A stretch of DNA of 64,000 nt from Minisyncoccia bacterium (GTDB lineage: Bacteria; Patescibacteriota; Minisyncoccia; SW-4-49-11): NCBI GenBank assembly GCA_044341565.1, contig JBIIRM010000001.1, positions 1,159 to 65,158 of the forward strand, read 5' to 3'. The position numbers were made by a program, and so were the translations under genes. Below the pieces are notes generated by a model. The model worked only from the letters and a program-made list of their open reading frames with translations, searched no databases and had not been told where the DNA came from. Below, piece by piece: positions 911 through 55,721 of this stretch. Position 1 is the stretch's first letter, and each line of letters starts with the position of its first letter.

Positions 911-987
911 AAGTTCATAGGACTATATCATACATATATATAGGGGGTATCAAATATGTATGATATAATAGGAGAAATTGTTTAGAT

Positions 988-3737: not shown

Positions 3738-3738
3738 T

Positions 3739-7578: not shown

Positions 7579-7579
7579 T

Positions 7580-9958: not shown

Positions 9959-10022
9959 TAAGATATTTTTGCATAAAATATAATTTCTATGCTATTATAA
10001 AGATAAGAATTTATCATAATAT

Positions 10023-10775: not shown

Positions 10776-10785
10776 GGGGGTGGCT
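10763..10785 (-). terminator. hairpin AGCCAC...GTGGCT spanning the convergent stop codons, followed on the minus strand by a T-run
   Basis: Stem GCCAC/GTGGC (10764-10768 / 10780-10784). The A-rich tract 10742-10762 on the + strand gives U-run after the hairpin for the minus-strand transcript. Confidence 0.5.
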
Positions 10786-11515: not shown

Positions 11516-11625
11516 GGGAAGGTACAGTAACTATATGTAGTATAGCATATTTTAAAGAAGTCCTCCTCCGTCCCTCTCATATAAATATGGGAGGGACACC
11601 TCCCCCAAGGGAGGACAGAGTACAA

Positions 11626-11651
11626 GAAAAAAGCCAGCTTCTAAACTGGCT
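11626..11651 (-). terminator. intrinsic terminator of 11641-12231 gene
   Basis: Stem AGCCAG/CTGGCT (11632-11637 / 11646-11651). On the minus strand it is followed by TTTTTTC (reverse complement of 11626-11631). Confidence 0.6.
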
Positions 11652-12231
11652 CAGAGGGGATATGTGAAATCCAATGGAAATGGCTAACTCGAAGGGGGGA
11701 TTGTATATTGGTATATCCTCGAAAATCAAATTGATTGATATCAAGATAGCATTCGAATCTATGCATTGTCATCTGTGTGGCAATGCCTGGATAGGGGTTA
11801 CTATAATCATCTCTAGGATTTGCTACCTGCAATTGTCTCCGTGCTATGATTTGAAAGGGTTGTATGGGTATTCTGAGTTCTTCATCAGCTATTGCCTCAA
11901 AGGCCTTCTTACAAGGGATTTCGTCTCGATGAAGCTGTTTGATAATGGAATAGGGTTTGAGTATATTGGATCTTAGGATTTTTCCATCTTTGAAACTATG
12001 GCCCTCTTCTCTCAATACAAGTAATTCATCAGGATGAGGGTTGAAATAGACAGATATAGCTGTTATTGCAATATGTCGAGTGAGAGTATTATTCTCACAA
12101 TTTACTGTACTATAGCCAGTATTGACTTCATCAATCAAATGAGTGGCAGTTTTTGTACCATTAATTCCCCACAAACTGAGGTCAATATCTGTCTCACGAA
12201 TCATCCCAAACAAATCTTGTAGGGCAAACAT
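11641..12231 (-). CDS. hypothetical protein (196 aa), elevated GC
   Basis: ORF plus its own terminator. No recognisable motifs. Confidence 0.5.
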   Translation of the reverse strand: MFALQDLFGMIRETDIDLSLWGINGTKTATHLIDEVNTGYSTVNCENNTLTRHIAITAISVYFNPHPDELLVLREEGHSFKDGKILRSNILKPYSIIKQLHRDEIPCKKAFEAIADEELRIPIQPFQIIARRQLQVANPRDDYSNPYPGIATQMTMHRFECYLDINQFDFRGYTNIQSPLRVSHFHWISHIPSEPV

Positions 12232-12282
12232 TTTTTCTGGTGCAAGGTACTATTATATTATATCATATTTGAGGTTGGGTAA

Positions 12283-12322
12283 AATAACAAAATGTCCCCT
12301 GACACCGATTCGGCGTCAGGGG
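12283..12322 (-). terminator. intrinsic terminator (CCCCTGAC/GTCAGGGG stem with inner CCG/CGG) followed by a U-rich tract
   Basis: 8+3 bp stem at 12296-12322. The reverse complement of 12283-12295 is ACATTTTGTTAT. Confidence 0.6.
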
Positions 12323-12542
12323 GGATGTCAGGAGATGGCTGTACTGAATGCCACCAAATCTCCCGAGGGGGAGAAAACTTCCACGAGGTGGAAGCGTCCC
12401 AGCTCAAGGGCTGGGACTGGCTGTGGGCCAGTGGGCCGAGGGGATGGTTTCCCTGGCTTCCCCTTGGTGGGGATGAAGTTGGGGAGTTTGACTCCCCCCT
12501 GATTACGAAGTTTCATGGTGTTTTCACCTTAGGTCAATTACA

Positions 12543-12571
12543 ATTATAGCACAAAACCACTAATTTGTCAA
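12543..12571 (-). promoter_or_regulatory. sigma70-type consensus promoter TTGACA-17-TATAAT
   Basis: Read directly as the reverse complement of 12543-12571. Confidence 0.6.
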
Positions 12572-12590
12572 TATCAGATAACATTAAATG

Positions 12591-12623
12591 TAAAAGAAAA
12601 AGACCTGTATCTAATACGGGTCA
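12591..12623 (-). terminator. probable terminator of the 77-aa ORF
   Basis: GACCTGTAT/ATACGGGTC imperfect stem at 12603-12623. The A-run 12591-12602 gives a U-run on the minus transcript. Confidence 0.4.
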
Positions 12624-12844
12624 AGTGGGAGGAATTGGTATCTTTGAGCATCGAGCTCATCATGCTGCTCCTTGGTAAGGGGGTATTCTCTTGGAGGGAG
12701 CTTTTCATTTAAAGGTCGCCTTGGATCCCAAGGGATTATGAAGTCCTTCTCAGGGTCAATATAGGCCTTGAGCCAAATGGAATAGGGAATACCATTCTTG
12801 GCAACCCATTCGGGGCTATACGGTTCGAGATTGGTGATGGTCAT
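12611..12844 (-). CDS. hypothetical small protein (77 aa), elevated GC
   Basis: ORF with a downstream hairpin and U-run. No motifs. Confidence 0.4.
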   Translation of the reverse strand: MTITNLEPYSPEWVAKNGIPYSIWLKAYIDPEKDFIIPWDPRRPLNEKLPPREYPLTKEQHDELDAQRYQFLPLDPY

Positions 12845-12890
12845 AAAGGTTCAGTAACTACGGGCATTATATACTAGGGCTACTAAAATA

Positions 12891-14174
12891 TCAAGTATTC
12901 CGACGATTTTGATATATACTTACAAGAGTAGTAATTATAAATAGTCCTGTCATATTCCAGAGCACAGCATTCACAATGCTTTCTAGGGATGAATTATTAT
13001 ATACAATAGCAATAGCCATGGTAATGCTTCCAATTATAGGGAATATACTAAGACTATATTTTTGAATAGAGAGATTATAATTGACGAGTACATTGATAAG
13101 AGAATACATCCCCATAATAAGAGCGAATTTCCCAAGTAGAGGTATTATGGGGGAGAATTTGTCTCCTAATAGGGTGTTGACTATAAGCTCGGGGAAAGAT
13201 TGATACAATATAAAAGCAATTAAGCTCATCAGTCCTACTGAGGCGAGAGAGGCATACAGCATTTTGTGATGTGGTTCATCTACGGTATGGCGGGCTGAGA
13301 CAATAGGGAACATTGCCATAGGTATAGCGGAAGTAGCAAAGAAAATAATTTTACCTAATGTAGCAAGTCCTGCATAATCTCCCGATGTCTCATCAATAAG
13401 ATAATGTTTAGCGAGAATTATATCAACAGAATTGAGTAGAGTTATTCCTAATACGGCAACTGTTGTGGGTATGGTGTAAATAATAATATCCCTCCATTTG
13501 AAATGGGGTAATTTAGGGGATTCTGGCTTATACTCTTTTAGTATATCGCGGAGGAAATATAAGGATAGTCCAAGCATGAATATACTGGCTATTGGTACAG
13601 CCAGCATTGCACCAGTTACAGGTGACATTGGCCAAAAAGGTAATGTAAGTATAATAAGTGCTGATATTTTTGCTATTACTCCAAAAAGGCTAGCAATAGA
13701 AAATCCAGTAAATCTTTGAGTACCTTGTAAGACACTGGTCCCAATAGAGCCTATCAGGGATAGCCCGAGAGCTAAGGCAAGTATAATAAGTGGTCCAAAG
13801 GATTCGAGATGCAGGAAACGATAAATAAATGGACTTGCTATACCAAATAGCATAATGAGTCCAAGGGATATAAGTCCAAGATAATAGGATAAAATACGAA
13901 TAAAAGAAGCAAGGGCAGGATAATCTTTTTTGGCATAGAGTACTGATGAGAATTTGATTACTACTAAACTCAAGGCTCCCCCCAATACAATTATAATGGT
14001 AAGTAGGGAGAATAAGCTAGCAAAAGTACCGAGTTGTTCTTTGTCGAGTATACGGGCCACAATAATATTGAATACATAATTGAGAGCTCCCACTCCAAAT
14101 GATCCAATAAATACAATCATTCCTCCACGAAATAGAGGGCTATGATATTGTTTTTTTATAAAGGCTTTCACCAT
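12891..14174 (-). CDS. polysaccharide/oligosaccharide flippase, MOP superfamily (Wzx-like)
   Basis: 427 aa with about 12-14 TM helices. Typical Wzx/polysaccharide-biosynthesis-protein topology; sits in the glycan locus. Confidence 0.65.
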   Translation of the reverse strand: MVKAFIKKQYHSPLFRGGMIVFIGSFGVGALNYVFNIIVARILDKEQLGTFASLFSLLTIIIVLGGALSLVVIKFSSVLYAKKDYPALASFIRILSYYLGLISLGLIMLFGIASPFIYRFLHLESFGPLIILALALGLSLIGSIGTSVLQGTQRFTGFSIASLFGVIAKISALIILTLPFWPMSPVTGAMLAVPIASIFMLGLSLYFLRDILKEYKPESPKLPHFKWRDIIIYTIPTTVAVLGITLLNSVDIILAKHYLIDETSGDYAGLATLGKIIFFATSAIPMAMFPIVSARHTVDEPHHKMLYASLASVGLMSLIAFILYQSFPELIVNTLLGDKFSPIIPLLGKFALIMGMYSLINVLVNYNLSIQKYSLSIFPIIGSITMAIAIVYNNSSLESIVNAVLWNMTGLFIITTLVSIYQNRRNT

Positions 14175-14262
14175 AACATATTTTCTAGTGACAATTGTAT
14201 CTAGTATACCATTGTCTTATGGTTTGTGCTATAATACTACTAATAATCGAGTATCAGAGTAT

Positions 14263-25329: not shown

Positions 25330-25959
25330 TTATCTTCTGGGCATGATTTTTTGATAGATATTCTCAATAAAGGTTATTCCTCCAGGGAAAAAGTTGAATA
25401 ATACAACGGAAGTATACATTGCAAGAGATATATTGGTATTCCAGAAGGATAAAGGAATAGCAAGTATAGTACTTAATAGGGGTAATAATATACGTATACG
25501 AGTATATTTACGATCTGAGGTATAGAATTTATCTTCATCGATATTATGAGAAAGTCTCATATAGGTTCTGAGTCCATAGAGAATTAAACTTAATAAGGAA
25601 ATATTAATCCCCTAAAAGATAATGGCAAATTGGGTATAATGATATTCCCCTAAAAGATGAGCAGAAAAGGGGAGTAAGGCTACAGAAATAAAGAAAATAA
25701 TATTAAAGTTTACAATATGAGTGTCGATCTTTTTTGCATAATACGATATCATAAATACATGAGCTCTCCAAAGCGTTGCCAGAACAGTGAAACTCAGCAT
25801 ATAGCTTAGAAATAAGGGAGTTAATTGTCTTACTGCTTCTCTAAGTTCTGCATTAGTAACAGTATGATGTATTTCTGGGACTTTAATTTCAATTACGAGC
25901 AATGTCATAACAATGGCAAATATCCCTTCCGCTAAAGCCTCTAGTCGTTGTTTATTCAT
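25330..25959 (-). pseudogene. DUF1211 (TMEM175-like) membrane channel family gene interrupted by a single in-frame TAG
   Basis: ORF 25612-25959 (RLEALAEGIFAIVMTLLVIEI is the DUF1211 signature) and ORF 25330-25560 share one frame. They are separated by exactly 51 nt (17 sense codons) after the TAG at 25612-25614. Combined length is ~208 aa with ~5-6 TM helices, which matches the family. Confidence 0.6.
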
Positions 25960-26441: not shown

Positions 26442-27056
26442 TTATAATTCCAACAATTCTTTCACCTTCATGATAGTGACTTTTTCTTGGCGAGTAAGTT
26501 CATCTAATGAGCTTTGAATTGATTTCAAATTTTGCTTCATATCAGGAATTATAACATATTCAAGAGCATTTACTCGACGGCGTGTTATTTCGATTTCTTC
26601 AGCCAAAAGGCGAGCGGTGAATTCTATTTCCGCTAATTGTATAATAAGGGGTAATATAGATTGTAATAATGAGAGTGATTGATCTAAATCTTTGGGAGTT
26701 CCAAAAGTTCCATATTGAAAGGGGTCTCCCGTAATATGAGGGATAATATGAGGGGTTTTCACTCCCATAATGGATTTTTTCTGTAATTCTAAATATGTTT
26801 TGGCTTGTGAGAGCTGAATTAATTCTTGAATAGCTTCTTCTGAAATTTTGGTTTGTGCAAAGCGGAATAGTTGTATTGCCTCTACAATTTTAGGGGTTAA
26901 TTCACCTCGAAGTTTTATTACTTCTTGGATAATAGCGAGGAATTCTTGAATTAGGCCATCTCTTTTGTCGGTAAGCAAATTATGTCCTCTGGAAGCTGTT
27001 TTAATTTTCTTCTTAAGTCTTAGGGCCTCTTGTCTGGTAGGCTTTACTGCTGGCAT
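26442..27056 (-). CDS. ntpD: V/A-type ATPase subunit D
   Basis: MPAVKPTRQEALRLKKKIKTASRGHNLLTDKRDGL is a typical subunit D N-terminus. Operon position after B. Confidence 0.8.
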   Translation of the reverse strand: MPAVKPTRQEALRLKKKIKTASRGHNLLTDKRDGLIQEFLAIIQEVIKLRGELTPKIVEAIQLFRFAQTKISEEAIQELIQLSQAKTYLELQKKSIMGVKTPHIIPHITGDPFQYGTFGTPKDLDQSLSLLQSILPLIIQLAEIEFTARLLAEEIEITRRRVNALEYVIIPDMKQNLKSIQSSLDELTRQEKVTIMKVKELLEL

Positions 27057-27058
27057 AT

Positions 27059-28444
27059 TTATTTGGAATATTTCTCAATAAATTCAGGCTTGATTTTCTT
27101 TAATTCTTTTTTCGGAAGAATGGATAATAATTCCCAAGATAAATCAAGAGTATCTAATATAGAACGGTTCTCTCGGCGACCCTGAGTAATATATCTTGTC
27201 TCAAAAGCCTCAGCAAATCGGATATAAGCTTTATCTGTCTCGGATAGGGCTGATTCACCAAGTATGAGGGCTAATTCTTTAATTTCCATTCCTTTGGCAT
27301 ATGAGGAGGCCATTTGCTCTTTGACGGCAGATAAATCTTCACGGGTATATTTTTTATTTACTCCAATACGAGAAAGAGATCCAATTGGTTGAATTGGAGG
27401 ATAAATCCCTTGATTATGAAGCTCTCTATTGACCATAATTTGCCCTTCTGTGATATATCCTGTAAGATCGGGGATTGGATGTTGTTTATCATCATCAGGC
27501 ATTGTTAGTATAGGAATTTGCGTCAATGAACCGGTAGATCCCTTGATAAGTCCCGCTCTTTCATAAAGAGTTGCTAAATCGGTATAGAGATATCCCGGAT
27601 ATCCTCTTCTTCCAGGAATTTCTTTTCTGGAGGCTGATACTTCACGGAGGGCGTCAGCATAATTGGTCATATCGGTTAATATAACTAATACATGCATATT
27701 TTTCTCAAAGGCAAGATATTCTCCCAGAGTAAGTGCTAGTCTTGGTAGGGTAATACGCTCTACAATAGGGTCGCTGGCGGTATTGATAAAGAGTGCGGCT
27801 CGCTCCATAGCTCCTGTTTTTTCAAATGAATCGATAAAGAATTGTGCTTCTTCAAAAGTAACTCCCATAGCTGCAAAAATAACAGCAAATGGTTCATCTG
27901 ACTCTACTAAATCAGTACCATTTTTTACTTCAACCACACGAGATTGTTCTGCAATTTGGGCAGCAAGTTCAGCATGAGGTAGTCCAGCTCCAGAAAATAT
28001 AGGGAGTTTTTGACCTCGTACAAGAGCATTTAATCCATCAATGGTAGAAATTCCTGTTTGAATAAATTCACTAGGGAATTGTCTTTGTCCAGGATTGATA
28101 GGGGCGCCATTGATATCTAAATATTTTTCAGCAATAATCTCGGGTCCACCATCTTTGACCTCACCAGCTCCGGTGAATACTCTTCCAAGCATTGATTCTG
28201 CAACACCAAATCTGAGTGTTTCTCCAAGAAATGCAATTTCAGCTGTTTTGGTATCAAGTCCTTCAGTATTGGTAAATAGTTGAACAATGGCGGTATCTTT
28301 ACCAGCCTCAAGTACTCTTCCTCGGCGAATATTTCCTTTTGCATCTCGAATCTCTACAATTTCCTCAAATGCAACTTCGGGTACCTTTTCCACTACTACG
28401 AGTGGTCCGGCAATTTCTTTGATTGTGTTATACCATTTCTTCAT
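27059..28444 (-). CDS. ntpB: V/A-type ATPase subunit B (regulatory)
   Basis: 461 aa with degenerate P-loop IFSGAGLPH and an alpha/beta ATPase fold (LTLGEYLAF...[16 protein letters not shown]). Confidence 0.85.
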
Positions 28445-28453
28445 ATAATTATC

Positions 28454-30286
28454 CTAAATTCCGTTGATTACTTTATTAATACCAAAGTCTGAGTCTTGAT
28501 TATTCTCCTTGAGATTTTTGATGGTGGGAGCAATAGAATCAATTAGAGTGGTAATTGACTCTATATCTGATTCTGGTATATTTTTGAGTTTACTAATAGA
28601 TTCTCTTATTGAAAGGTCTAGTATATCAGTAATTTCAATATGTGTATTAGCTTGAGCAAATTCTAAGGCTTCTGTATGGAAAGTAAGCATTGCTTTTAAC
28701 ATCAAATACATTTTACGGGTTGAGGCAAAAGCATCCACTTCATCAAAAGCATTTTGTTGTAAATAATCTTCTCTCAAACCACGCGCAGTGTCGAGAAGAA
28801 TTTTCTCAGCATTAGATAGGGCATCCATACCTACTAATTTGATAATATCATCAAGCTCATTTTCTTTTTGTAAAATTTGCATAGCAAGATCACGAAGAGT
28901 ACCCCAATCTGAATGCGTTTTTTCAATGAAATATTCTTCTACATTATCCCGATACAAACTATAACTATTAAGCCAATGAATAGATGGGAAATGTTTTTTG
29001 GCAGCAAGTGAAGCATCAAGTCCCCAAAAAGCCTTAGTTACTTTGAGGGTAGCTTGACTTACAGGTTCAGACAAATCTCCTCCTGGAGGGGATACCGCTG
29101 CAATAATAGTAGCTGAACCAGTTCTATTTTCTGATCCAAGTGTTGTCACAATACCAGCTCTTTCATAAAAGGCTGAAATTCGAGATCCAAGATAAGCAGG
29201 ATACCCTTCTTCTCCTGGCATTTCTTCTAATCTTCCAGACATTTCTCGCATAGCTTCTGCCCAACGTGATGTTGAATCAGCCATCATAGCAACATTATAT
29301 CCCATATCTCGATAATATTCAGCTAATGTAATACCGGTATATACAGAAGCTTCACGAGCTGCAATAGGCATATTAGAAGTATTGGCAACTAAAATAGTCC
29401 GCTCCATTAAAGGTCGTCCTGATGCGGGGTCTTTTAAATGAGGGAATTCTACTAGTACATCGGTAATTTCATTTCCACGCTCACCACAACCAACATAAAT
29501 AACAATATCAGCATCAGACCATTTTGCTAATTGTTGCTGAATAACGGTTTTCCCAGCTCCAAATGGTCCTGGAACAGCGGCAGCTCCTCCTTTTGGTACA
29601 GGGAAAAAGGTGTCAATAATTCTTTGTTGTGTAATAAGAGGAGTGCGAGGAATTTGTTTAGCTTGATAAGGTCGGGGAGTACGTACTGGCCATTTATGCA
29701 TTAATTGCACAGGAGTATCTCCAATGGTAGCTATAGTTTCAGTTACGGTAAATTCACCAGATTTAATATCAGTAATTTCTCCTTCCACTCCTAAGGGGAC
29801 GAGAATTTTATGTATAATAAGTCCTGTTTCTTGTACTGTTCCTAGTATATCTCCAGGAATTACGGTATCTCCTTTTTTGAGTAATGGCTTGAATTCCCAT
29901 TTTGTCTCTCGATTAAGGCTTGGAGCGGTAACACCTTTTGCAATATATCCTGGATTTAATCCATTAGCAGCTGCCTTTTCTGCAATAACATTAAGGGGTC
30001 GTAAAATTCCATCAAATAATCCAGCAGTTAAAAGTCCAGGGCCAAGTTCTATACTAAGGGGCTCACCAGTTGAACTTACGGGTTCTCCTACAACAAGTCC
30101 AGAAGTATCTTCATATACCTGGATAGAAGCGGTATCTCCCTTAAGCTCAATAATTTCTCCCATAAGCTCAAGTGTTCCTACTTTAACCAAGTCATACATT
30201 TTAGCTCCTCTCATAGAGTCAGCAATAACAAGTGGTCCTGAGATTTTGATAATTGTTCCTGTATTCATAATAATTAGATTAATCAA
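28454..30286 (-). CDS. ntpA: V/A-type ATPase subunit A (catalytic)
   Basis: 610 aa with P-loop GPFGAGKTV and the [16 protein letters not shown]-equivalent region. Contains the non-homologous insert typical of A subunits. Confidence 0.9.
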
Positions 30287-30606
30287 GAGGCGAATAATGT
30301 GTCGAGGCTCATTCCTACAGCTTTCTCGGTTAGCCGTTTTAGCTCATCCACAGATGAGCTATCACTACTAATAGGAAGTTGAGAAATAGGAATAGTAAAT
30401 GAGTTCATAATTTTCCGTTGTTTTGGTGTCAATATAATAGAAGAAGATATAAAAATAATAGCATATTGATCAATATCTTTTTCTATAGATTGAATGATAG
30501 TATCTATTGAAATCTCTTCACTATTAAAAGTTTCAAAGCCAAATAATTGAAATAAGAGAATAATATCTACCTCAGCAATTACAACGGGTTTTTTATACGG
30601 TATCAT
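30283..30606 (-). CDS. ntpF: V/A-type ATPase subunit F
   Basis: 107 aa; [18 protein letters not shown] resembles the subunit F N-terminus; operon position. Confidence 0.65.
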
Positions 30607-31541
30607 ATAGCTGAATAATTAATAAATCGTAATTTAGCTTGCTTGGAGTCTATTTGCTTACCATATTGTAAAAGGAGTAATTTTATATTTGCAATAGCAT
30701 AATGTAATCTCTCAGTATATTGAATAATACGATCTCCTGACATACCAGTAAATTGAGCTTTATTTATCGCATTTATTTCTTTTCGAATAAGGGTATTTTC
30801 AATATTAATAATATTAATATCAGCGGGAGATAAATGGAGGAATTGTCCAATATCACCTAGAATATCTCCAAAGCTAAAACCCTTTACTGCATTAATAGCA
30901 AAGCTTCCCTGAATTGGTAATAAATGGCGTATAATATGCTCTCGTGATTGTCCTTTTTGGGTACGTGCTAATACATTTAATAAAGTATAGCTATTAATTT
31001 TAGTTAATATGAAGTGTTTCATCACCCTACTGGTATCTTGAAGATGTTCAAATAATAAGGTTAAAAAGACTTCTTCTAGATAAGAAATAATTCCAAAGCT
31101 ATCAGGAGAATGAATGATTTTGTCTTGTTTCGCTAAAAGTTTTTGTTTAAATTCTGTTGAATAGTATAATTGACTTGGGATTTCAGATAGAATATGTAAA
31201 AATGCTTTTTCTCCTAAAATTTCACCATATACTGTTTGATTGAGAGTAATTTTTTTTACATTTTCAAAATCTTTTTGTAATTGAAGATATATAAATGGAG
31301 CAGAGTCATGAGGAAGAAGATGTAAAATCCCATCTATTTCTTTCTGATAATAGTGATTTAATTCTTGAATAATTGTTGGGATATTATTATCAGCTATATG
31401 GAATGAGTTTTTAATTAAAGTAAATACCCCATCAATATTATCGGTTACTAATAAATGCTTTACTTCAATAGAAGAAGGCAAATGTCCTAATCTTGAGACA
31501 TATCTACTCGCAACACCAATGAGGGGTATTTGTAAACTCAT
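30603..31541 (-). CDS. ntpC: V/A-type ATPase subunit C (eukaryotic d-like)
   Basis: 312 aa, helical; position between E and F as in ntp/atp IKECFABD operons. Confidence 0.6.
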   Translation of the reverse strand: MSLQIPLIGVASRYVSRLGHLPSSIEVKHLLVTDNIDGVFTLIKNSFHIADNNIPTIIQELNHYYQKEIDGILHLLPHDSAPFIYLQLQKDFENVKKITLNQTVYGEILGEKAFLHILSEIPSQLYYSTEFKQKLLAKQDKIIHSPDSFGIISYLEEVFLTLLFEHLQDTSRVMKHFILTKINSYTLLNVLARTQKGQSREHIIRHLLPIQGSFAINAVKGFSFGDILGDIGQFLHLSPADINIINIENTLIRKEINAINKAQFTGMSGDRIIQYTERLHYAIANIKLLLLQYGKQIDSKQAKLRFINYSAI

Positions 31542-32095
31542 AATTGTTTTATGATAAGGGGAAGAGTTTTATGTTTTACTATTGCAAGAATATCTTCTAC
31601 AGTAATCTCTAAATGTCCAGATTCTAATATAGTACTAATTGTACCTAAACTCTCCGAATGATTTGAATGGGTAATAGTATATCTAAAAGGTTTAATAAGG
31701 GATTCTAATTCAGAACTATATTGTCCACTAAGCTCCAGAGTTGATGAAGAAGGAATATCTTTTAAGGTATCAGTAATCAGATTTTTAACAAATTGAGAAT
31801 TAAGAATATTAGGAAGGATTTCTTGGTATATGGTATCTAATTCAGCTTGTACAGAATATCCATAGGCAAATTTCTGAGATTTACTTTGTTGAAATTTTTT
31901 AAAATTAATTTGAGTAGAAACTGCTTCATCAATTTCTTGTGAATGGAGTCTTTTCACTTCAGCTAATTGGCTATTCCAATGAGCTTTAACATCTTGAAAT
32001 TCAACAGCATATTGAGACTCTAATTTCTCAATATCAGCATTTACTTGTGACTGAATCAAATCTGCTAAAGTCATATTATCCAATTGATACTCCAT
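31538..32095 (-). CDS. ntpE: V/A-type ATPase subunit E
   Basis: 185 aa with an N-terminal coiled coil; operon position. Confidence 0.6.
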   Translation of the reverse strand: MEYQLDNMTLADLIQSQVNADIEKLESQYAVEFQDVKAHWNSQLAEVKRLHSQEIDEAVSTQINFKKFQQSKSQKFAYGYSVQAELDTIYQEILPNILNSQFVKNLITDTLKDIPSSSTLELSGQYSSELESLIKPFRYTITHSNHSESLGTISTILESGHLEITVEDILAIVKHKTLPLIIKQL

Positions 32096-32555
32096 TAATA
32101 ATCAAAATTGAAACAAGAAGCCCAAATACAGCAAATGTTTCTACTAAAGCAGCAAGGATAATTACTTGCCCTATTTTAGATTTATCTCGAGAAATAAGTT
32201 GAATTCCACTTGCAATTACATCCCCCTGATATTTACCAGAAGCAAGACAAGTAAGTCCTACTGGAATTCCTGCAAAAGCTAATATGAGACCATTTTGCCA
32301 AGTTACATCTGCAAATTCACCAGATAAAACTCCAGTATTTTGTAAAATCAATACCGCTGCTAATAGTCCATAAATAGCTTGAGAACCTGGTAGGGCTGAT
32401 AATAATAATACATTACCAAATTGTGATTCATCTTCTGCAACAAGCCCAGCTCCAGTTTTTCCAGCGGTAGCTACTCCAATTGATGAACCAGCTCCAGCAA
32501 GCCCTGCAGCTAATGCTGCTCCTAATACTGCCAAACTTATTCCTAATACTTCCAT
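32076..32555 (-). CDS. ntpK: V/A-type ATPase proteolipid subunit K (c-subunit, 4 TM)
   Basis: 159 aa, Gly/Ala-rich with 4 TM helices, internally duplicated pattern. Confidence 0.8.
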   Translation of the reverse strand: MEVLGISLAVLGAALAAGLAGAGSSIGVATAGKTGAGLVAEDESQFGNVLLLSALPGSQAIYGLLAAVLILQNTGVLSGEFADVTWQNGLILAFAGIPVGLTCLASGKYQGDVIASGIQLISRDKSKIGQVIILAALVETFAVFGLLVSILIINGVSIG

Positions 32556-32646
32556 ATATGTAATTTAAATTCTTAATAGGGGATACAGATTCCTGCTATC
32601 CTTTTCACTATACTCTTATATATGTAAGAATACAATGAAAAGAATA

Positions 32647-34689
32647 TCAAGACTTTTCAATAATACTATATTCTTGAGATCGAGTTATCACTTGTAGAGG
32701 TTTACCTCCAGATTGGAAAAATTTACTAAAGAACTCTACAAAATGTAGTCGACCAACATTAATATATGTACCGAGTACATTAAGCGCAAGATTAAATATA
32801 TTTCCTGCAATAAAAATAATAATCATAAGAATATATCCAATCAAAATCCATGCTCCACCCTTTTCTACAAATCCACTACCAGCTAAATTAGATAAAGTAC
32901 CTACAACCCCTGCAATAATTCCTGTAGCAAGTCCTAGAGCAACTAATCGAGTATAGGATAAAATATCAGATAAATATCCTACTACTCCAAAAAAGACATC
33001 ATAAGCACCTTTTCCAAATCGAGCGAGAATTGAATTCATTTCTCGTCCAAGCGTATAAATCATTACAATAATATAGGCTATATAAAGATATAAGAGGGGA
33101 TCAATTAATAATTGTAATCCAGAGCCGAGTAATCCAAAATTAATTAATAATAATACTATTCCAAAAACTAAAGCACCAACCCATAATATGGAATCTATAC
33201 TTGATTCCCAAACAGATTTTTTATTAAAGGCTTGAATAATATTAAGTATTAATCCAAATAATAGATGAATAATACCTAATATAATAGTGAAAGCCATTAA
33301 TGCAATTACACTACCCATTGGATTAATAATTTGAATCTGTTGTAATAGAGGAATAAGACCAATATTAATGAGAAATAGCATATGAGGAGAAGCAGTTTCA
33401 GGGTTAATGGCATCAGGGGTAATACCAAACCAACTACCAAATAAAGCTCCAACAATAAGAGTAGCAATAGAGGATATGAAAATTACGGTAAAGATATCTC
33501 TTGCTCCAGACTTTAATTTAGATTGCAGAAGTCCGGCTCCCGTGAGAATAATTAAGATTAAAGCATATCCTGCCTCAGATAATGCAAGTGCAAACATAAA
33601 GGTAAAGAATAATGCAATAAATGGTGTTGGATCAATATTTCCAGCCTGAGGATATCCCATAATTCTCGTTACTGTTTCAAAGTTACGAATAATAGGGGCA
33701 TTTTTCATAATAATAGGAGTTTCAGAAATTTTGGAGGGTAATTCAATAATTTCTCCTTTTTTTGATATAGTCTGAATATCTTTTTCTAATAAATGTAATT
33801 TTTCAGAATCTATCCATATTTGCAATGAAGATGTATTATTTTCTTCAGGAGTAAAAGCATGTAAATAAGATATTATATTGAGATGAGAAGTTATTACATC
33901 ACTTAATATTGCTAAATCTTTTAATTTGATAGGAGATTTTTTTAATTCTCGATTTAATTTGAGAATAGCCTTTTTGTTTTCATTGAATTCTTGTTTGCTA
34001 CTATGATAAATATCATAAAAAGAACCAGAAACTTCAGCCGGAAATTGAATTAAGGTCGCTTGATTTTGTATGATTTCCAGGCCAATTTTTGCTTGAGATT
34101 TTGGTAGGGCTAGAATATATACATAATCAGTATCAATTTTTTTTACTGATTCTAATACAATAGAAGATAAGGTTTTTTCTAATTCATCAATAATATATTG
34201 AACCCGTGACTCATCAATTAAGAATGGTAAAAATTGAATATAAGAATAATTCTTAAAAATATCAAGTTCAATATCCTTGAGAGGATTAGATTTTGCAATA
34301 ATATCTTGTAATACTTCTTGGCGACTTATTAAATCATCTTTTAAATCATTTTTTTCTACAATTTCTTTGGCTTTTGCAATAATAAGATCTTGCTCATTAT
34401 CATAATGTGCAAATATTTGTTCAGTAATACTAAATCTATTATCGATAAGACTCGCTAAAACAGATTTTTTTTGAGGATTATAGATTTTATAAACATCCAG
34501 AGCTTTATTGATAATATCTAATTTTTCTAATAAGTCTTGCTGTTTTGTTGTGGATTGAGCATCTAGAGGGGTGTTTTCTATTTTTTCAATAATTTGTCCA
34601 ATTTGAGATTTTTGAAGATATGATAAAAGGGATAACTTTTTCTTATTGGGGATAGTGATTTGAATAAGTTTAGACGCTTGAACTCCCAT
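32647..34689 (-). CDS. ntpI: V/A-type ATPase subunit I (a-subunit)
   Basis: 680 aa with an N-terminal ~330-aa coiled-coil cytoplasmic domain and a C-terminal ~8-TM domain. Confidence 0.75.
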   Translation of the reverse strand: MGVQASKLIQITIPNKKKLSLLSYLQKSQIGQIIEKIENTPLDAQSTTKQQDLLEKLDIINKALDVYKIYNPQKKSVLASLIDNRFSITEQIFAHYDNEQDLIIAKAKEIVEKNDLKDDLISRQEVLQDIIAKSNPLKDIELDIFKNYSYIQFLPFLIDESRVQYIIDELEKTLSSIVLESVKKIDTDYVYILALPKSQAKIGLEIIQNQATLIQFPAEVSGSFYDIYHSSKQEFNENKKAILKLNRELKKSPIKLKDLAILSDVITSHLNIISYLHAFTPEENNTSSLQIWIDSEKLHLLEKDIQTISKKGEIIELPSKISETPIIMKNAPIIRNFETVTRIMGYPQAGNIDPTPFIALFFTFMFALALSEAGYALILIILTGAGLLQSKLKSGARDIFTVIFISSIATLIVGALFGSWFGITPDAINPETASPHMLFLINIGLIPLLQQIQIINPMGSVIALMAFTIILGIIHLLFGLILNIIQAFNKKSVWESSIDSILWVGALVFGIVLLLINFGLLGSGLQLLIDPLLYLYIAYIIVMIYTLGREMNSILARFGKGAYDVFFGVVGYLSDILSYTRLVALGLATGIIAGVVGTLSNLAGSGFVEKGGAWILIGYILMIIIFIAGNIFNLALNVLGTYINVGRLHFVEFFSKFFQSGGKPLQVITRSQEYSIIEKS

Positions 34690-42778: not shown

Positions 42779-43213
42779 TTAGGATTGAATAATAATAGAT
42801 CTCTCTTCCGGGCTTATCACATCAAAAATAATTTGAATATGAGGAATATCTTTCCAAAGATTAGGTGTTTTATTTGCCCATTCAATAAGAAGTATAGATT
42901 TAGGATTTTGTAATATATCATTAATGCCGAGTTCCAATACTTCCCACTCTTGCTCGAGGCGATATAAATCAAAATGATATACCGTATATTCTGAATTAGG
43001 GATTGTATATGGTTTCATAATTACAAAAGTTGGGCTATTGACCGTTTGAGTAATACCAAGTACTTTTAGGAATCCCTGACTAAATGTTGTTTTCCCCCCT
43101 CCAAGTTCCCCATCAAGTAATATGAGCCGAGGTTTTAATCCCTCTAAAACTTCCTGCGCGAGAGTTTGGGCAATTTCTTGAGTTTGTGTGATAGAGTGAG
43201 AAAGTATACTCAT
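42779..43213 (-). CDS. tsaE: tRNA threonylcarbamoyladenosine biosynthesis protein TsaE
   Basis: GELGGGKTTFSQGF Walker A; VNSPTFVIMKPY; 144 aa. Confidence 0.8.
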   Translation of the reverse strand: MSILSHSITQTQEIAQTLAQEVLEGLKPRLILLDGELGGGKTTFSQGFLKVLGITQTVNSPTFVIMKPYTIPNSEYTVYHFDLYRLEQEWEVLELGINDILQNPKSILLIEWANKTPNLWKDIPHIQIIFDVISPEERSIIIQS

Positions 43214-43214
43214 A

Positions 43215-46205
43215 TTATAATACTGTAATTCCTAATACCCGTTCAATTTCAGCAAAATCAGTAGTATGATCTAATACCTTTAGAATACCAGAAACTTCCA
43301 AGGTTGTCATGCCCTCTTTAATAGCTAAATCTTTAATACGGGCGGTGGATGCTTGACTAATAATAATTTCTTTAATAGCTGGGCTAATAACAAGCACTTC
43401 AAATATAGCCATAATACCAAGATATCCATCGGGATGATCGGGGCTTGAATTAGCTTGTAATATAGTATCAGGAATAAGATTATGATAATGTTCTGGTAAT
43501 TTAGAGCGAATAATATCTTTTTGTTCATCAGTTAAAGTGATAGGAGTAGCGGTAGCTGGGTCAAGTTTACGAATAATACGTTGAGCAATAGTAACATTAA
43601 CAAAGGCAGCAATTTCAGAAAGACCAACACCCAAATCATATAATCTCAAAATTGCAGAAGCAGCATCATTAGTATGCAAAGTAGATAGCAAAAGATGTCC
43701 CGTTGCTGCTGTTTGCATAGCAACTTTAGCAGTTTCATTATCTCGAATTTCTCCAATAAGTACAATATTAGGGTTTTGTCTTAATAGGGCTCGAATAGCA
43801 TTGGGAAAACTATAACCAGTCTCTTCATTAATACTCGTTTGGAGAATTCCTGACAATTTGTATTCAATTGGATCTTCAATGGTAATAATTTTCACCCCAG
43901 GCTGATTGAGGGTGTTAAGAGTTGCATAAAGAGTGGTAGATTTTCCAGCACTAGTAGGACCTGTTACAAGTATAAGTCCAGTAGTAGCTTTGAGCTGAGC
44001 TTTAAGAAGGCCAATATTATATTCATCCATTCCAAGATCTTTGAGTCCGAGGCTTGCAATATCTGACCTTAGGATACGAAGTACAATGGTTTGACCATAT
44101 CCTCCGGGAATAATAGAAACTCTTACATCAAAATTCTTCTCAGTAAAAATAGTAAATCTTCCCTCCTGAATAGTATTGCTAATATCCAGAGCTAGACCTG
44201 AGAATATTTTGATTTGGGTTAAAATTTGAGGATAAAGAGATTTTGGAATACGAGCCTCTTCATATAAAACTCCATCAATACGAAATCGAATAATTAAATC
44301 TCCCTCATCAGGCTCAAGATGAATATCAGTAGCTCTTTTTGAGAGGGCTGCTGTAGTAATAGCAGTTAATTGATCATTAATTGACATAGACTCAGACAAT
44401 TGACTAATTTGAGGAGGGGTATTACTCGGCTTTATATGAATTCCACGAGATAATGCTGACGTAAGGGTTGACTCATATAATTCTTCAATATAATTTATAT
44501 CTCCAGCTACAGCTAAGACTTCTTCAAATGAAGTTTCTCCATCAATAGCATGAAGAATTCCATCTTGGAATAAGGTTACCATTCCATTTTCTATAGCTTT
44601 ACGAAATATTTTGAATTCAGGGGTATTATTACTAATTAATTCTTTAATATTGTCACGAGCTTCAAATAACTCATAAATAGCAAGACGCCCTTTATATCCA
44701 AGCCCATAACATTTAGGACAACCTTTGGGCTTATATAATTTAGTTACTTCTTTAGGTATGGTTATATTAGATTTGGGAGAAATAATGGCAAGAGCATGAT
44801 TAATCGTTGTGACCTCTTCCTCTGATGGAATATATTCCTCTTTACATTCACATAATCGCCGCAATAATCTTTGAGCAATAAATAAATTCATGGCAGATAT
44901 GATAAGTGGGGGGGGCACATCAAATTCTTGTAATCTGGTTACAATACCTACGGAATCATTGGTGTGAATAGTAGAGAATACGAGATGACCAGTAATGGAA
45001 GCATTCACTGCAATATTGGCAGTATCATTGTCTCTAATTTCTCCAATCATAATCACATCGGGGTCTTGTCTTACGATGGCTTTTAATCCATTAGCAAAAG
45101 TATATCCTTTTTTAATATCAACTTGAGTTTGATTGATATTTTGTAATCGATATTCAATTGGATCTTCAAGAGTAATAATATTGGTCTCACTTCTATTTAT
45201 ATAATTTAGAAAAGAATAAAGGCTGGTAGTTTTTCCTGATCCTGTAGGCCCTGATAACATAATCATACCTTGGGATTTCTCAAGATTTCTTAAAATAATA
45301 TCTAGAAAAGGGGGTCTAATTCCAAATGAATAAATATCTAAATTGTGAATTTCGGTATTCAATAATCGCATCACAATAATTTCTCCTGTTTTACTCGGCA
45401 ATATAGAAACTCTTACATCAATAGTTTGTTTATTAGCACCATCTTTATCAACAATTACAATACTAAATCGTCCATCTTGTGAAGTGCTTTTAACATTAAG
45501 CACTAATGATGCAAGATTCTTGATACGGGATATAAGAGATTTATAAAGATTAGCATCAAAATTTAAAATATCTTGTAAAACTCCATCAATACGATAGCGC
45601 AAACGGGTAAAAGATCCTTTGGGTTCAATATGTATATCGCTAGCAAAAGAGGATATAGCTCCTGCACAAATCATTTGAATTAACTCTGAAGTTTCTACGG
45701 AATTAATTTTTTGAGCAAAATCCTCAAGTTTCACAATATCACTCTGAGTATCTTCTATCATATACTCCGGAATAAGTAGTCTATCCTTTACAATTTGTCC
45801 TCTATCCTGCAGAAAATCATAAGAAGCATATCCTTTCTCAAGACTATATTTTGAAACTAAATATAATTCTATCTGATACTCTTTTTGATAAAATTGTTGT
45901 AAAACTGTTTTTGTAAGAATATTGTTAATATCTCCAATAGCAATTTTGAGATGAATCCCTGAGCGTTGAAATATAATCATACCAGCCTTCTCGGCTTGTT
46001 CTCGAGTCAAGATTTTAAGAGCATCAGGATTAATTGGAATAAATTTGAGATTAATATAGGCAATTCCAAGAGTATCTGCTTTTCTTTGTGTGGCGAGTTC
46101 CTCTTCTTTTTTTCGAATTAATGTTAAATTTGATCCCGCAGCTGTATTAGTCTGGAGTTTTTCTCGAAAACTTTGGCGATTTGATTGTTTATTTATTGAA
46201 GCCAT
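43215..46205 (-). CDS. GspE/PilB-type secretion ATPase with two complete ATPase cores fused in tandem (T2SE_N + ATPase + ATPase)
   Basis: Core 1: SGPTGSGKTT, LEDPIEY, IMIGEIRD...TGHLVFSTIHTND, tetracysteine CECK...CPKCYG. Core 2: TGPTSAGKST, IEDPIEY, VLIGEIRD...TGHLLLSTLHTND, no Cys cluster. N-terminal GspE_N-like domain. Confidence 0.85.
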   Translation of the reverse strand: MASINKQSNRQSFREKLQTNTAAGSNLTLIRKKEEELATQRKADTLGIAYINLKFIPINPDALKILTREQAEKAGMIIFQRSGIHLKIAIGDINNILTKTVLQQFYQKEYQIELYLVSKYSLEKGYASYDFLQDRGQIVKDRLLIPEYMIEDTQSDIVKLEDFAQKINSVETSELIQMICAGAISSFASDIHIEPKGSFTRLRYRIDGVLQDILNFDANLYKSLISRIKNLASLVLNVKSTSQDGRFSIVIVDKDGANKQTIDVRVSILPSKTGEIIVMRLLNTEIHNLDIYSFGIRPPFLDIILRNLEKSQGMIMLSGPTGSGKTTSLYSFLNYINRSETNIITLEDPIEYRLQNINQTQVDIKKGYTFANGLKAIVRQDPDVIMIGEIRDNDTANIAVNASITGHLVFSTIHTNDSVGIVTRLQEFDVPPPLIISAMNLFIAQRLLRRLCECKEEYIPSEEEVTTINHALAIISPKSNITIPKEVTKLYKPKGCPKCYGLGYKGRLAIYELFEARDNIKELISNNTPEFKIFRKAIENGMVTLFQDGILHAIDGETSFEEVLAVAGDINYIEELYESTLTSALSRGIHIKPSNTPPQISQLSESMSINDQLTAITTAALSKRATDIHLEPDEGDLIIRFRIDGVLYEEARIPKSLYPQILTQIKIFSGLALDISNTIQEGRFTIFTEKNFDVRVSIIPGGYGQTIVLRILRSDIASLGLKDLGMDEYNIGLLKAQLKATTGLILVTGPTSAGKSTTLYATLNTLNQPGVKIITIEDPIEYKLSGILQTSINEETGYSFPNAIRALLRQNPNIVLIGEIRDNETAKVAMQTAATGHLLLSTLHTNDAASAILRLYDLGVGLSEIAAFVNVTIAQRIIRKLDPATATPITLTDEQKDIIRSKLPEHYHNLIPDTILQANSSPDHPDGYLGIMAIFEVLVISPAIKEIIISQASTARIKDLAIKEGMTTLEVSGILKVLDHTTDFAEIERVLGITVL

Positions 46206-53793: not shown

Positions 53794-54855
53794 ATGGATA
53801 TAAAGACATTTAAAGAAAAATTTCAACCTCTTCTTGAGAAAGCTCTTGACCAAAAATTCACAGAATATTCTCTTTATACTCAAGATGAGGAGATTTTGGG
53901 TATAATTCATTATGTGCGAGCTATTATTGGTGGGGGAAAATGTATTCGCCCATATATGGCTTATACGCTATATGAAACATTAGGAGGAGAGGATACGGAT
54001 ACTATTCTAGATTTATTGGTATCTCTTGAAATTTTTCATTCCTTTGCTTTAATACATGATGATGTTATTGATGAAGGGAAAATACGCCATAGAGTTGATA
54101 CTGTGCATACATTTGTCTCTAATAGCATACAGGATAATCATAGAAGTGTAAGGAATAGGGTACATTATGGGCATTCACAGGCAATTCTTATTGGAGATTT
54201 ATTATTCTCATGGTCAATTGGAAGATTTCATGAATTTCAGCAATTACCATATCATAATGATGCGTGGAAAATTTTCTATCAAATGATTGATGAAGTAGCT
54301 GTTGGACAAATGATTGATGTTAATGTGATGACTAGAGACTCAATTGATGCTGATTTGATTGAGACAAAAATGCGATTAAAAACTGCAGGATATACTTTTG
54401 TGCGCCCAATGCAAATAGGTGTTACCTTAGCGGGAAAAGGGAAAGAATTAGAGCAATTCTGTATTGATTTTGGTATTGCTTTGGGATTAGCTTTTCAAAC
54501 TCAAGACGATATTTTGGACATTATTGCAGACCCCAATATTATCAAAAAGTCGGTATTATCAGATATTAGAGAACATCAACATACATTTCTAACACAATAT
54601 GTGCTTGAGCAGGGTAATGAGAAAGATATTATGAAGTTACAGACATATTGGGGAAATGAATCTTTTACAGATAAGGACCAGAAGTCTATAATTGACTTAT
54701 TCGAGCATACAGGGGCTCTTTCTTATGCAAGAGCTAAAGTACAGGCATATTTAGAGCAAGCTCGACAAATTACTCGAGCCGAGAATAATATTACTGAGAA
54801 TACAAGAATTGCATTAAATAGTCTTATTGAATATATTGCTGACAGAGCATATTAA
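53794..54855 (+). CDS. trans-polyprenyl diphosphate synthase (IspA/GGPPS family)
   Basis: FARM motif FALIHDDVIDEG; SARM motif AFQTQDDILD. Confidence 0.85.
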   Translation: MDIKTFKEKFQPLLEKALDQKFTEYSLYTQDEEILGIIHYVRAIIGGGKCIRPYMAYTLYETLGGEDTDTILDLLVSLEIFHSFALIHDDVIDEGKIRHRVDTVHTFVSNSIQDNHRSVRNRVHYGHSQAILIGDLLFSWSIGRFHEFQQLPYHNDAWKIFYQMIDEVAVGQMIDVNVMTRDSIDADLIETKMRLKTAGYTFVRPMQIGVTLAGKGKELEQFCIDFGIALGLAFQTQDDILDIIADPNIIKKSVLSDIREHQHTFLTQYVLEQGNEKDIMKLQTYWGNESFTDKDQKSIIDLFEHTGALSYARAKVQAYLEQARQITRAENNITENTRIALNSLIEYIADRAY

Positions 54856-54860
54856 ACTAT

Positions 54861-55721
54861 ATGGACAAATATACCAAATCAATAGAAGCTATTACTAAGC
54901 AATTTGGAACAAGTTATTATTTTGCTACTCGGTTTTTGCCGGCTGATTTGAGGCAGGCAACCTATGCTTTATATAGTTTTTTTCGTATTCCGGATGAAAT
55001 TGTAGATAATGCTAATAATAATTCAGATACACATATTTTAGCTGAATTGAATGATTGGCAAATAGTATGGGAAAGGGCATATCATGGAGATATTACGAAA
55101 TACCCCGTACTTAATATGACAGCAAAAGTATTTCACACCTATCATATTCCATATCAATATAGTCTTGATTTTCTTGCAGCAATGAAACAAGATATAGTAA
55201 TTAAAGAGTATAAAACCTATCAAGACCTACAACAATATATGTACGGCTCAGCTGCGGTAGTGGGTCTTATGATGACATATATTATTGGCTATACTAATGA
55301 TAAGGCTTTGGAATATGCACCTTTACTTGGAGAGGCAATGCAAATGACAAATTTCCTCCGTGATATTGGAGAAGATTATGATCAGCGTGGTAGAATATAT
55401 ATACCACAGCATGATTTGTTAAGGTATAAAGTTACAGAAGATATGATTCAGAATCATCAGGTAACAAAAGAATTTGTGAATTGTCTCAAATATCAAATAC
55501 AGCATACTCGTGAATTATATCGGAAATCAGATAAGGGACTCCAATATCTGAATAGAAAAGGAAGATTTGCCGTTATTATGGCAAGTCGTATGTATGAGGC
55601 GATTCTCGGTAAAATTGAACAAAATCATTATGATGTGTTAACAAAAAGAGCGAGAACATCAAAGCGAGAAAAAGTATATATTCTTGGAAAGGCAGCATTA
55701 GAATATGGTTTTCAAGAATAA
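54861..55721 (+). CDS. squalene/phytoene synthase family (head-to-head isoprenoid synthase)
   Basis: YALYSFFRIPDEIVD (DxxxD), MYGSAAVVGLMM, FLRDIGEDYDQRGRIYIP (second Asp-rich region). Confidence 0.75.
   Translation: MDKYTKSIEAITKQFGTSYYFATRFLPADLRQATYALYSFFRIPDEIVDNANNNSDTHILAELNDWQIVWERAYHGDITKYPVLNMTAKVFHTYHIPYQYSLDFLAAMKQDIVIKEYKTYQDLQQYMYGSAAVVGLMMTYIIGYTNDKALEYAPLLGEAMQMTNFLRDIGEDYDQRGRIYIPQHDLLRYKVTEDMIQNHQVTKEFVNCLKYQIQHTRELYRKSDKGLQYLNRKGRFAVIMASRMYEAILGKIEQNHYDVLTKRARTSKREKVYILGKAALEYGFQE

Follow-up and report, generated by a model that had tools for sequence, protein, structure and literature searches.

What does a hexameric pilus motor become when two of its motor modules are made as one chain? 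This question is raised by a gene in a 64,000-nucleotide stretch of contig JBIIRM010000001.1 from a Minisyncoccia bacterium (assembly GCA_044341565.1), which we analysed over its whole length and refer to as the window. The original prediction, made from the sequence, had described a single polypeptide in which a GspE-type N-terminal domain precedes two complete PilB/GspE cores, and the open reading frame (ORF), the Pfam domains and the motifs all agree with this description. We confirmed that the tandem ATPase is a genuine, vertically conserved family of the ultra-small bacteria of the candidate phyla radiation (CPR), the Patescibacteria. Both ATP sites keep all the residues for binding, hydrolysis and inter-subunit sensing, and both look active. 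On balance we lean slightly towards a model in which the protein is a covalent heterodimer of its two halves, three chains of which would form an alternating six-module ring that energises a type IV filament machine encoded elsewhere. The family-wide conservation, and an origin from an orphan paralogue with polA-tsaE and ruvB-ruvC synteny, are new relative to the original prediction.

Two PilB/GspE-type motor modules in one chain

The gene is an uninterrupted ORF from ATG to stop, encoding 996 residues on the minus strand. Its parts are listed below, with residue numbers for the 996-residue protein.

43215..46205, minus strand: whole gene of the 996-residue tandem-core PilB/GspE-family ATPase, stop codon included (ORF; Pfam T2SSE twice plus MshEN; more than 120 full-length homologues)
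45840..46070, minus strand: N1D, the GspE/PilB N-terminal domain, Pfam MshEN at residues 46-122, a single copy per chain (PF05157; AlphaFold; Foldseek)
45360..45698, minus strand: N2D1, about residues 170-282, with arginine fingers R265 and R280, family-invariant R227, Q243 and G245, and relaxed R246 (alignment to Geobacter PilB; residue roles from PMC5424180; family conservation)
44502..45338, minus strand: CTD1, about residues 290-568, with Walker A K325, Asp box E347/E351, catalytic Glu E389, His box H407/H414, pore-loop D392/D394 and a four-cysteine (Cys4) zinc site C452, C454, C496 and C499 (motif positions; conservation; Foldseek match 5tsg_B)
44409..44501, minus strand: inter-module linker, residues 569-599, with a conserved amphipathic helix at about residues 572-591 (family conservation; AlphaFold helix 571-585)
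44070..44408, minus strand: N2D2, about residues 600-712, with arginine fingers R695 and R710, invariant R683, and the R227 equivalent lost (Q664) (half-to-half alignment; family conservation)
43218..44048, minus strand: CTD2, about residues 720-996, with Walker A K755, Asp box E777/E781, catalytic Glu E819, His box H837/H844 and pore-loop D822/E824; the zinc subdomain is there, but without cysteines in the sub-clade of this protein (motif positions; conservation)

Along the chain, N1D is thus followed by N2D1-CTD1 (half 1, H1), a conserved 31-residue linker and N2D2-CTD2 (half 2, H2). Pfam finds T2SSE in two stretches and MshEN/GspE-N at residues 46-122, and the top NCBIfam models are GspE and PilB, each again in two stretches. 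Core 1 has GPTGSGKTT at residue 319, LEDPIEY at 346, GHLVFSTIHTND at 406, CECK at 452 and CPKC at 496; core 2 has GPTSAGKST at 749, IEDPIEY at 776 and GHLLLSTLHTND at 836. All ten motif strings that had been quoted for the protein are in their places. The N1D scores 24.1 bits against PF05157 (cut-off 23.1) and is modelled by AlphaFold as an alpha/beta fold with a predicted local distance difference test score (pLDDT) of 82-91. The top Foldseek match is 4pht (GspE, N1E bound to GspL), with 501 aligned columns. No cyclic di-GMP-type MshEN motif was seen on inspection of residues 1-45.

The marks of the PilT-like superfamily (T2SSE, PF00437) occur twice in the chain: Walker A, Asp box, an atypical Walker B with the catalytic Glu, and His box. 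Both halves also have the two N2D arginine fingers, R271 and R286 in Geobacter metallireducens PilB (PilB_Gm). Among the marks of the PilB/GspE clade, N1D is present once per chain, and Cys4 is present in the chain and absent from module 2 of the 996-residue protein. PilB and GspE homohexamers have one N2D-CTD motor per chain, whereas this chain has two. The halves score 426.3 and 351.6 bits against TIGR02538, the type IVa pilus PilB equivalog (cut-off 675.65 bits), and the whole-protein score of 766.6 bits exceeds the cut-off only because the two domains add up. Against TIGR02533, the type II secretion GspE equivalog (cut-off 630.25 bits), they score 427.5 and 365.0. An assignment to PilT or PilU does not fit either: the pilT_fam scores are 166.5 and 169.0 bits per half against a cut-off of 319, the zinc subdomain fold is found in both halves, and the AIRNLIRE motif of PilT is absent from the 996-residue protein. 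By its residues and fold, each module belongs to the PilB/GspE clade of motors, while neither half passes the PilB or GspE equivalog thresholds.

A conserved family of Patescibacteria

A frameshift or an assembly duplication had been named in advance as a finding that would undo the prediction. We consider such an artefact, or a read-through of two adjacent genes, to have a negligible probability. The ORF is continuous, and the halves have diverged: residues 163-568 and 600-992 share 36% identity in an alignment of about 400 residues (E = 3e-81), and as DNA their similarity is detectable only in one 180-nt stretch at 68% identity. Thus the duplication is ancient, neither recent nor made by assembly. 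The G+C content around the gene is about 33%, and its composition is that of the rest of the window. Furthermore, the exact 996-residue protein is also recorded in independent assemblies from NCBI, the Joint Genome Institute (JGI) and Logan, and its 35-member 90%-identity cluster holds many further 996-residue copies from independent sources.

We searched 5.8 billion clustered proteins for homologues and took the best 120 clusters. Apart from a single truncated entry of 763 residues, all are 988-1,107 residues long, and they show 39-94% identity over 95-100% of the query. Their source labels are Minisyncoccia, Parcubacteria, Moranbacteria/Moraniibacteriota and Patescibacteria. A second search added further tandem subfamilies of 964-967 residues from Paceibacterota and Minisyncoccia, so that the architecture is common to more than 130 clusters of about 965-1,030 residues, and all those with a named source are Patescibacteria. 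These diverged clusters keep the length and the conserved linker, which argues further against an artefact.

HMMER with half 2 alone, run against 1.84 billion 50%-identity representatives, returned about 15 full tandem representatives and two fragments (P0136 and P0137), followed in the ranking by ordinary single-core PilB-like proteins at 40-47% identity. One 416-residue protein, P0130, is 66% identical to half 2 and was considered as a free-standing half 2. Its 90%-identity cluster also contains a 999-residue member, however, so that P0130 is probably a truncated gene call. Looking among relatives for the same fusion or for split versions, as had been proposed, thus returned a widespread conserved tandem family whose sole apparent split copy is this one. 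A scan of genome contigs with the family alignment used universal Walker A and Asp-box peptides and was swamped by ordinary PilBs; one of its 80 loci (L012) is tandem, but it also supplied CPR loci in which the synteny described below became apparent.

Both catalytic sites look intact

Residue roles were assigned by alignment to PilB_Gm, in which E357 is the Mg-coordinating Asp-box Glu, E395 the catalytic Glu, and R271 and R286 arginine fingers (McCallum et al. 2017, PMC5424180). Conservation was scored in 120 family members for motifs and cysteines, in 177 tandem proteins for residue percentages, and in a 104-sequence alignment. In the alignment of 120 family members, each core shows little or no variation in its Walker A, Asp-box, Walker B (GEIRD) and His-box columns. 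Conservation in the 177 tandem proteins is 99-100% for K325/K755, E347/E777, E351/E781 (E357 in PilB_Gm), E389/E819 (E395), H407/H837 (H413), H414/H844 (H420), R265/R695 (R271), R280/R710 (R286) and R449/R879 (R455), and the arginine fingers reach 100% in both halves. In the 104-sequence alignment, T321/T751 and T405/T835, equivalent to T327 and T411 of PilB_Gm, are invariant or at least 90% conserved. The pore-loop residues D398 and E400 of PilB_Gm correspond to D392/D394 and D822/E824, of which D392, D822 and E824 are conserved and D394 is not. Within the subfamily of about 1,000 residues, H1 sequences have a mean identity of 0.59 and H2 sequences one of 0.54; 104 columns of H1 and 85 of H2 are conserved at 95% or more, with the same residue in both halves at 61. 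Judged from these alignments, purifying selection is strong on both halves.

The original prediction had raised a half-inactive catalytic cycle, which would follow if H2 were a degenerate, regulatory or purely structural pseudo-ATPase. Indeed, H2 evolves somewhat faster by both measures given above, and it has lost its Cys4 site in the sub-clade of the 996-residue protein. However, the Walker A Lys, Asp-box Glu, catalytic Glu, both His and both arginine fingers are as conserved in H2 as in H1 at 99-100%, and R683 is invariant in H2 while its equivalent in H1 is relaxed. Because of this conservation of catalytic residues in both halves, we regard a half-inactive design as very improbable. Clear degeneration of one half had also been named as a finding against the prediction; the catalytic Glu and arginine fingers were checked in both halves, and neither is degenerate.

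Complementary divergence of the N2D domains

Three sets of N2D positions distinguish the halves of the tandem proteins from each other and from single-core PilBs.

R227/Q664 position: Arg in 100% of tandem H1; Glu or Gln in tandem H2; Arg in 91% of single-core PilBs
R246/R683 position (the QDGR arginine, R257 in PilB_Gm): Arg in 57% of H1 (also His, Thr); Arg in 99% of H2; Arg in 88% of single-core PilBs
Q243 and G245 equivalents: 99-100% in H1; 37% and 57% in H2; 98-99% in single-core PilBs

The single-core proteins thus retain both of the Arg positions that the tandem protein splits between H1 and H2. A complementary relaxation of this kind is the pattern that would be expected from fixed, non-equivalent positions in a hetero-oligomer, and at the level of sequence the N2D domains of H1 and H2 show clear signs of sub-functionalisation.

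The zinc site tells a different story from the one first proposed, namely that only core 1 carries the Cys4 motif. This holds for the 996-residue protein, but not as a feature of the design. All 120 sequences have exactly four cysteines in H1. In H2, 87 of them have four or more, 3 have two and 30 have none. These Cys-free sequences make up the sub-clade of the 996-residue protein itself, in which the region equivalent to the zinc subdomain is without cysteine. Because 87 of the 120 relatives retain Cys4 in H2, its absence is a secondary loss from an ancestral tandem protein with two zinc sites.

The linker and the proposed ring

Among relatives, the linker residues Y577 (98%), L585 (97%) and R587 (86%) are conserved in an amphipathic pattern; the linker is a conserved helix and no floppy spacer. 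AlphaFold2, run on the full chain with the 104-sequence alignment, gave a mean pLDDT of 85.7 and a predicted template modelling score (pTM) of 0.51, with five confidently folded domains; the models place a helix at residues 571-585 in the linker, where pLDDT is 64-84. When CTD1-linker-N2D2 (residues 296-716) was predicted alone, pLDDT was 93.2 and pTM rose to 0.72. PilB rings are built of packing units in which the N2D of one module sits on the CTD of its neighbour (PMC5424180), and the model of CTD1 with N2D2 is compatible with one rigid unit of this type. In Foldseek searches of the PDB, each core superposes on the N2D and CTD of PilB (5tsg_B) with a template modelling (TM) score of 0.93 and a root-mean-square deviation of 2.0 Å, and PilF and GspE also match. 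No solved chain in the PDB spans more than about 37% of the model, and thus no tandem structure is present there.

The three-chain pseudo-hexamer raised in the original prediction is plausible on these grounds: it fits the intact cores, the conserved linker helix, the complementary N2D divergence and the pTM of CTD1-linker-N2D2. Three chains would form one planar ring of six motor modules, in which H1 and H2 strictly alternate. A C2 rotary cycle, in which two opposite sites fire together, has been described for PilB (PMC5424180). In an alternating ring, positions n and n+3 would always be one H1 and one H2, and every rotary step would need both kinds of site, which would explain why neither half has decayed. 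Such a ring would carry only three N1D, instead of six, for docking a PilM/GspL-like partner. Its three-fold architecture would be intrinsic to the three chains and would resemble the C3 OCOCOC states of PilT.

Two P-loop modules in one chain need not share a ring. The tandem modules of KaiC, p97 and ClpB are stacked into two rings, and six of the present chains could likewise build an H1 ring and an H2 ring with 12 ATP sites, since each module is complete and in principle able to assemble into a separate ring. In PilT-like rings, however, N2D packs on the CTD of the neighbour (PMC5424180), and the 31-residue linker joins CTD1 directly to N2D2, which fits neighbours within the same ring. In addition, fixed heterotypic contacts between H1 and H2 predict the complementary N2D relaxation and two homotypic rings do not, and each chain has a single N1D. 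None of the three points is decisive, and we consider stacked rings unlikely.

Origin from an orphan PilB paralogue

In a first neighbour-joining tree, which compared the halves with their best single-core matches, the placement of H1 was unresolved; it was resolved once syntenic and operon-type CPR PilBs were added. In the resulting tree, the syntenic single-core proteins, tandem H1 and tandem H2 form one clade with 98% bootstrap, apart from operon-type CPR PilBs and from PilBs of other phyla. The H2 modules are monophyletic (97%), and the H1 modules are intermixed with the single-core orthologues. H1 shares 47-51% identity with the syntenic single-core proteins and 40-45% with H2. Clade structure and identities together indicate a single origin of the tandem gene, through an internal duplication in which a CPR-specific orphan PilB paralogue gained its second N2D-CTD module. 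The 996-residue protein belongs to this CPR orphan PilB-like lineage, as we define it here, by its place in the 98% clade and by the tsaE gene directly adjacent to its own.

Three distant tandem representatives, P0135 (1047 residues), P0131 and P0133, have halves that fall outside the main H1 and H2 sets in the neighbour-joining trees. They could be independent fusions, or just too diverged.

Genomic context and the proposed link to a filament machine

The nearest neighbour of the ATPase gene is tsaE, listed here for context only.

42779..43213, minus strand: tsaE, starting 1 nt past the ATPase stop codon (Pfam TsaE)

The other neighbours in the window are housekeeping genes: pfkB, femAB, vanW and cysS downstream, and pgk upstream and divergent. 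The original prediction had stated that no pilM, pilN, pilO, pilC, pilin or prepilin peptidase genes adjoin the ATPase. This extends to the whole 64-kb window, in which we found no homologues of PilC, PilM, PilN, PilO, PilD or pilins and no pilin leader motif, and the gene lists for about 7-10 kb past either window end also contain no pil genes. No gsp neighbours of the ATPase occur in the window, and Rfam and tRNA scans gave nothing relevant to the gene.

Distant tandem relatives at about 40% identity (L001, L002, L004, L005 and L008) sit in a recurring gene block: DUF3048, polA or a 5'-3' exonuclease gene, tsaE, the divergently oriented tandem ATPase, ruvB, a PKD/LTD protein, yebC, ruvC, a seven-transmembrane (7TM) transglutaminase and ATP-grasp genes. 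A bPH_2 gene sometimes lies between ruvB and yebC. The single-core protein P0394 (L010; 555 residues, MshEN plus T2SSE) fills the exact slot of the tandem ATPase in this block, and P0429 (L011) likewise occupies it. By tblastn, the ATPase has tsaE and/or ruvB nearby, usually with polA-exo and ruvC as well, in 16 CPR loci (L020-L022, L024, L026-L028, L030, L033-L036, L039, L040, L044 and L048), labelled as Paceibacterota, Minisyncoccia, Nealson-, Staskawicz-, Wildermuth-, Doudna-, Falkow- and Saccharibacteria. The distance between TsaE and the ATPase is 0.1-7 kb in these loci and in L001, L002, L004, L005, L008 and L010. tsaE is the one window neighbour whose linkage to the ATPase lineage is conserved across CPR. 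The orphan PilB-like gene is a fixed part of this neighbourhood, which is deeply conserved in CPR. ruvB, adjacent in most relatives, is not adjacent in the window, and recA, ssb and ftsK are sometimes also near the orphan lineage.

In five of these loci (L033, L039, L040, L044 and L048; from Nealson-, Staskawicz- and Wildermuthbacteria, with some labelled Saccharibacteria or Patescibacteria group), the syntenic orphan ATPase has about 431-437 residues, with N2D and CTD and without N1D. The orphan lineage thus varies both ways, with the docking domain lost in some groups and a second motor gained in others.

Canonical pilus operons of CPR look different. L047 encodes PilM, a probable PilN (no Pfam match), a weak PilO (below the Pfam cut-off), PilB, PilT, PilC, a pilin and PilD, and in L060 PilB is followed by Pfam-confirmed PilC and, further downstream, PilM. 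L017 and L066 appear to have similar pil operons, as judged from gene order, size and pilin-like N-termini only.

The ring proposed above would power a type IV filament machine, either a pilus or a competence pseudopilus, encoded elsewhere in the genome. Several points weigh against this. A component of the type IV pilus would be expected to be encoded with PilC, PilM and pilins, yet the window and the flanks (about 10 kb) of the 19 tandem or orthologous loci examined contain no pilus gene. Because no pilus genes are nearby, the link to a filament machine is drawn from homology and the retained N1D alone. The pil operons of other CPR genomes (L047, L017 and L060) have their own PilB, which belongs to a different clade, and the tandem protein may thus not be the main pilus extension motor. 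As for the ring itself, the pTM of 0.72 is suggestive only. The phylogeny is by neighbour joining only, with 200 bootstraps.

The ring might instead serve a process other than the type IV pilus, such as DNA uptake or handling or a CPR-specific membrane process, with the operon PilB driving pili. This would agree with a lineage that is never found beside pil genes, that keeps its synteny with polA, ruvB and ruvC and at times recA, ssb and ftsK, that forms a clade distinct from the PilBs of CPR pil operons, and whose halves are each below the NCBIfam equivalog cut-offs for GspE and PilB. However, the proximity of polA, ruvB and ruvC may be inherited gene order only. The protein also retains N1D, the pore-loop acidic residues (D392/D394 and D822/E824) and the zinc subdomain of extension ATPases, and no alternative partner was identified. 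We find such a role doubtful, if less so than stacked rings. The fullest version of our proposal is one we hold only tentatively: that Patescibacteria have a second, operon-independent PilB lineage, which in several classes would be a covalent H1-H2 heterodimer building an obligate A3B3-type, fully catalytic pseudo-hexamer, and which may serve a non-canonical function, for instance a DNA uptake that is tied to the recombination genes next to it.

Other observations

A complete-looking V/A-type ATPase operon, present here in a CPR-like organism with a small genome, lies at 26442-34689 on the minus strand of the window, with genes for subunit I (V_ATPase_I), the c/K proteolipid, F, A, B and D and two ORFs without a Pfam match; a TMEM175-like K+ channel gene is found at 25612-25959, just downstream. 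Two adjacent large ORFs of 752 and 792 residues at 5320-9958 (plus strand), both without a Pfam match, lie inside a cluster of glycosyltransferase, methyltransferase and flippase genes at about 240-14200. At 53794-55721 (plus strand), next to recA, come genes for a polyprenyl synthetase and then a squalene/phytoene synthase, an isoprenoid condensation pair in a genome that is minimal in other respects. Outside the window, the Planctomycetota loci L078 and L031 have three adjacent T2SSE genes (PilB-like, PilT-like and PilB-like) as separate genes with no fusion.

Significance

We found no description of a tandem, fused or two-domain PilB/GspE in a full-text literature search, the coverage of which was incomplete; domain-architecture databases were not checked and may well list such architectures. 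Provisionally, we thus regard tandem PilB/GspE proteins as undescribed. In publications on CPR pili, PilB is handled as one family, and the TM7x two-pilus paper uses the names PilB1 and PilB2 for pil loci only. Current pipelines label these proteins merely as "GspE/PulE family" or "PilB".

The debate over how the six sites of PilB and PilT are coordinated, with C2 rotary set against C3 or C6 schemes, still draws on snapshots of homohexamers from crystallography and cryo-EM. Covalently linked and genetically distinguishable neighbouring sites would permit every second position to be mutated, which is not cleanly possible in a homohexamer, and R227 and R246 mark N2D contacts that can be divided between alternating subunits. 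If the proposed ring is correct, this would be the first natural linked-subunit ATPase of the PilT class, in which the fixed alternation and the halved number of N1D would impose a three-fold architecture on a motor thought to be two-fold symmetric. Type IV filaments are believed to have a central part in how CPR bacteria attach and acquire DNA, and a second PilB lineage that is conserved yet unstudied, and that comes in single-core and tandem forms, bears on the CPR lifestyle.

Comparison with known systems

The closest characterised relatives are the PilB/GspE ATPases (Geobacter metallireducens 5TSG and 5TSH; Vibrio GspE/EpsE 4KSR, 4PHT and 1P9R; Myxococcus 3JC8). They share with the tandem protein N1D, N2D and a CTD with zinc subdomain, together with the catalytic and sensing residues; sequence identity to the tandem cores is about 35-43%, and superposition gives TM scores of 0.89-0.93. 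The tandem chain differs in having two N2D-CTD modules with a conserved helix between them, a single N1D for both motors and a gene outside pil and gsp operons. The single-core orphan PilB-like ATPases of Patescibacteria (for example P0394/L010, L011 and L020-L048) are the positional orthologues, with the same neighbourhood, the 98% clade and 47-51% identity to H1. In contrast to the tandem protein, they have one motor module in about 550-590 residues (about 430 without N1D) and keep both N2D residues.

Thermus thermophilus PilF (6F8L, 5IT5) is also a PilB-class extension ATPase enlarged through internal duplication. However, it is the N-terminal GSPII domains that are multiplied in PilF, next to one ATPase core, whereas in the tandem protein the ATPase core itself is duplicated. 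The C3 'OCOCOC' hexamers of PilT (6OJY and 6OK2, which are among the fold matches) show the three-fold symmetry and alternating interfaces that would be expected of a trimer of tandem chains, yet these are homohexamers of a retraction ATPase.

Six-site rings of two diverged modules, either alternating or covalently linked, are known from V1/F1 A3B3, Pex1/Pex6, KaiC and p97. The likeness of the tandem protein to these, as to linked-subunit constructs, is one of concept only, as A3B3, Pex1/Pex6, KaiC and p97 belong to other branches of the ATPase superfamily. Furthermore, one partner in A3B3 is non-catalytic, whereas both modules of the tandem protein look catalytic.

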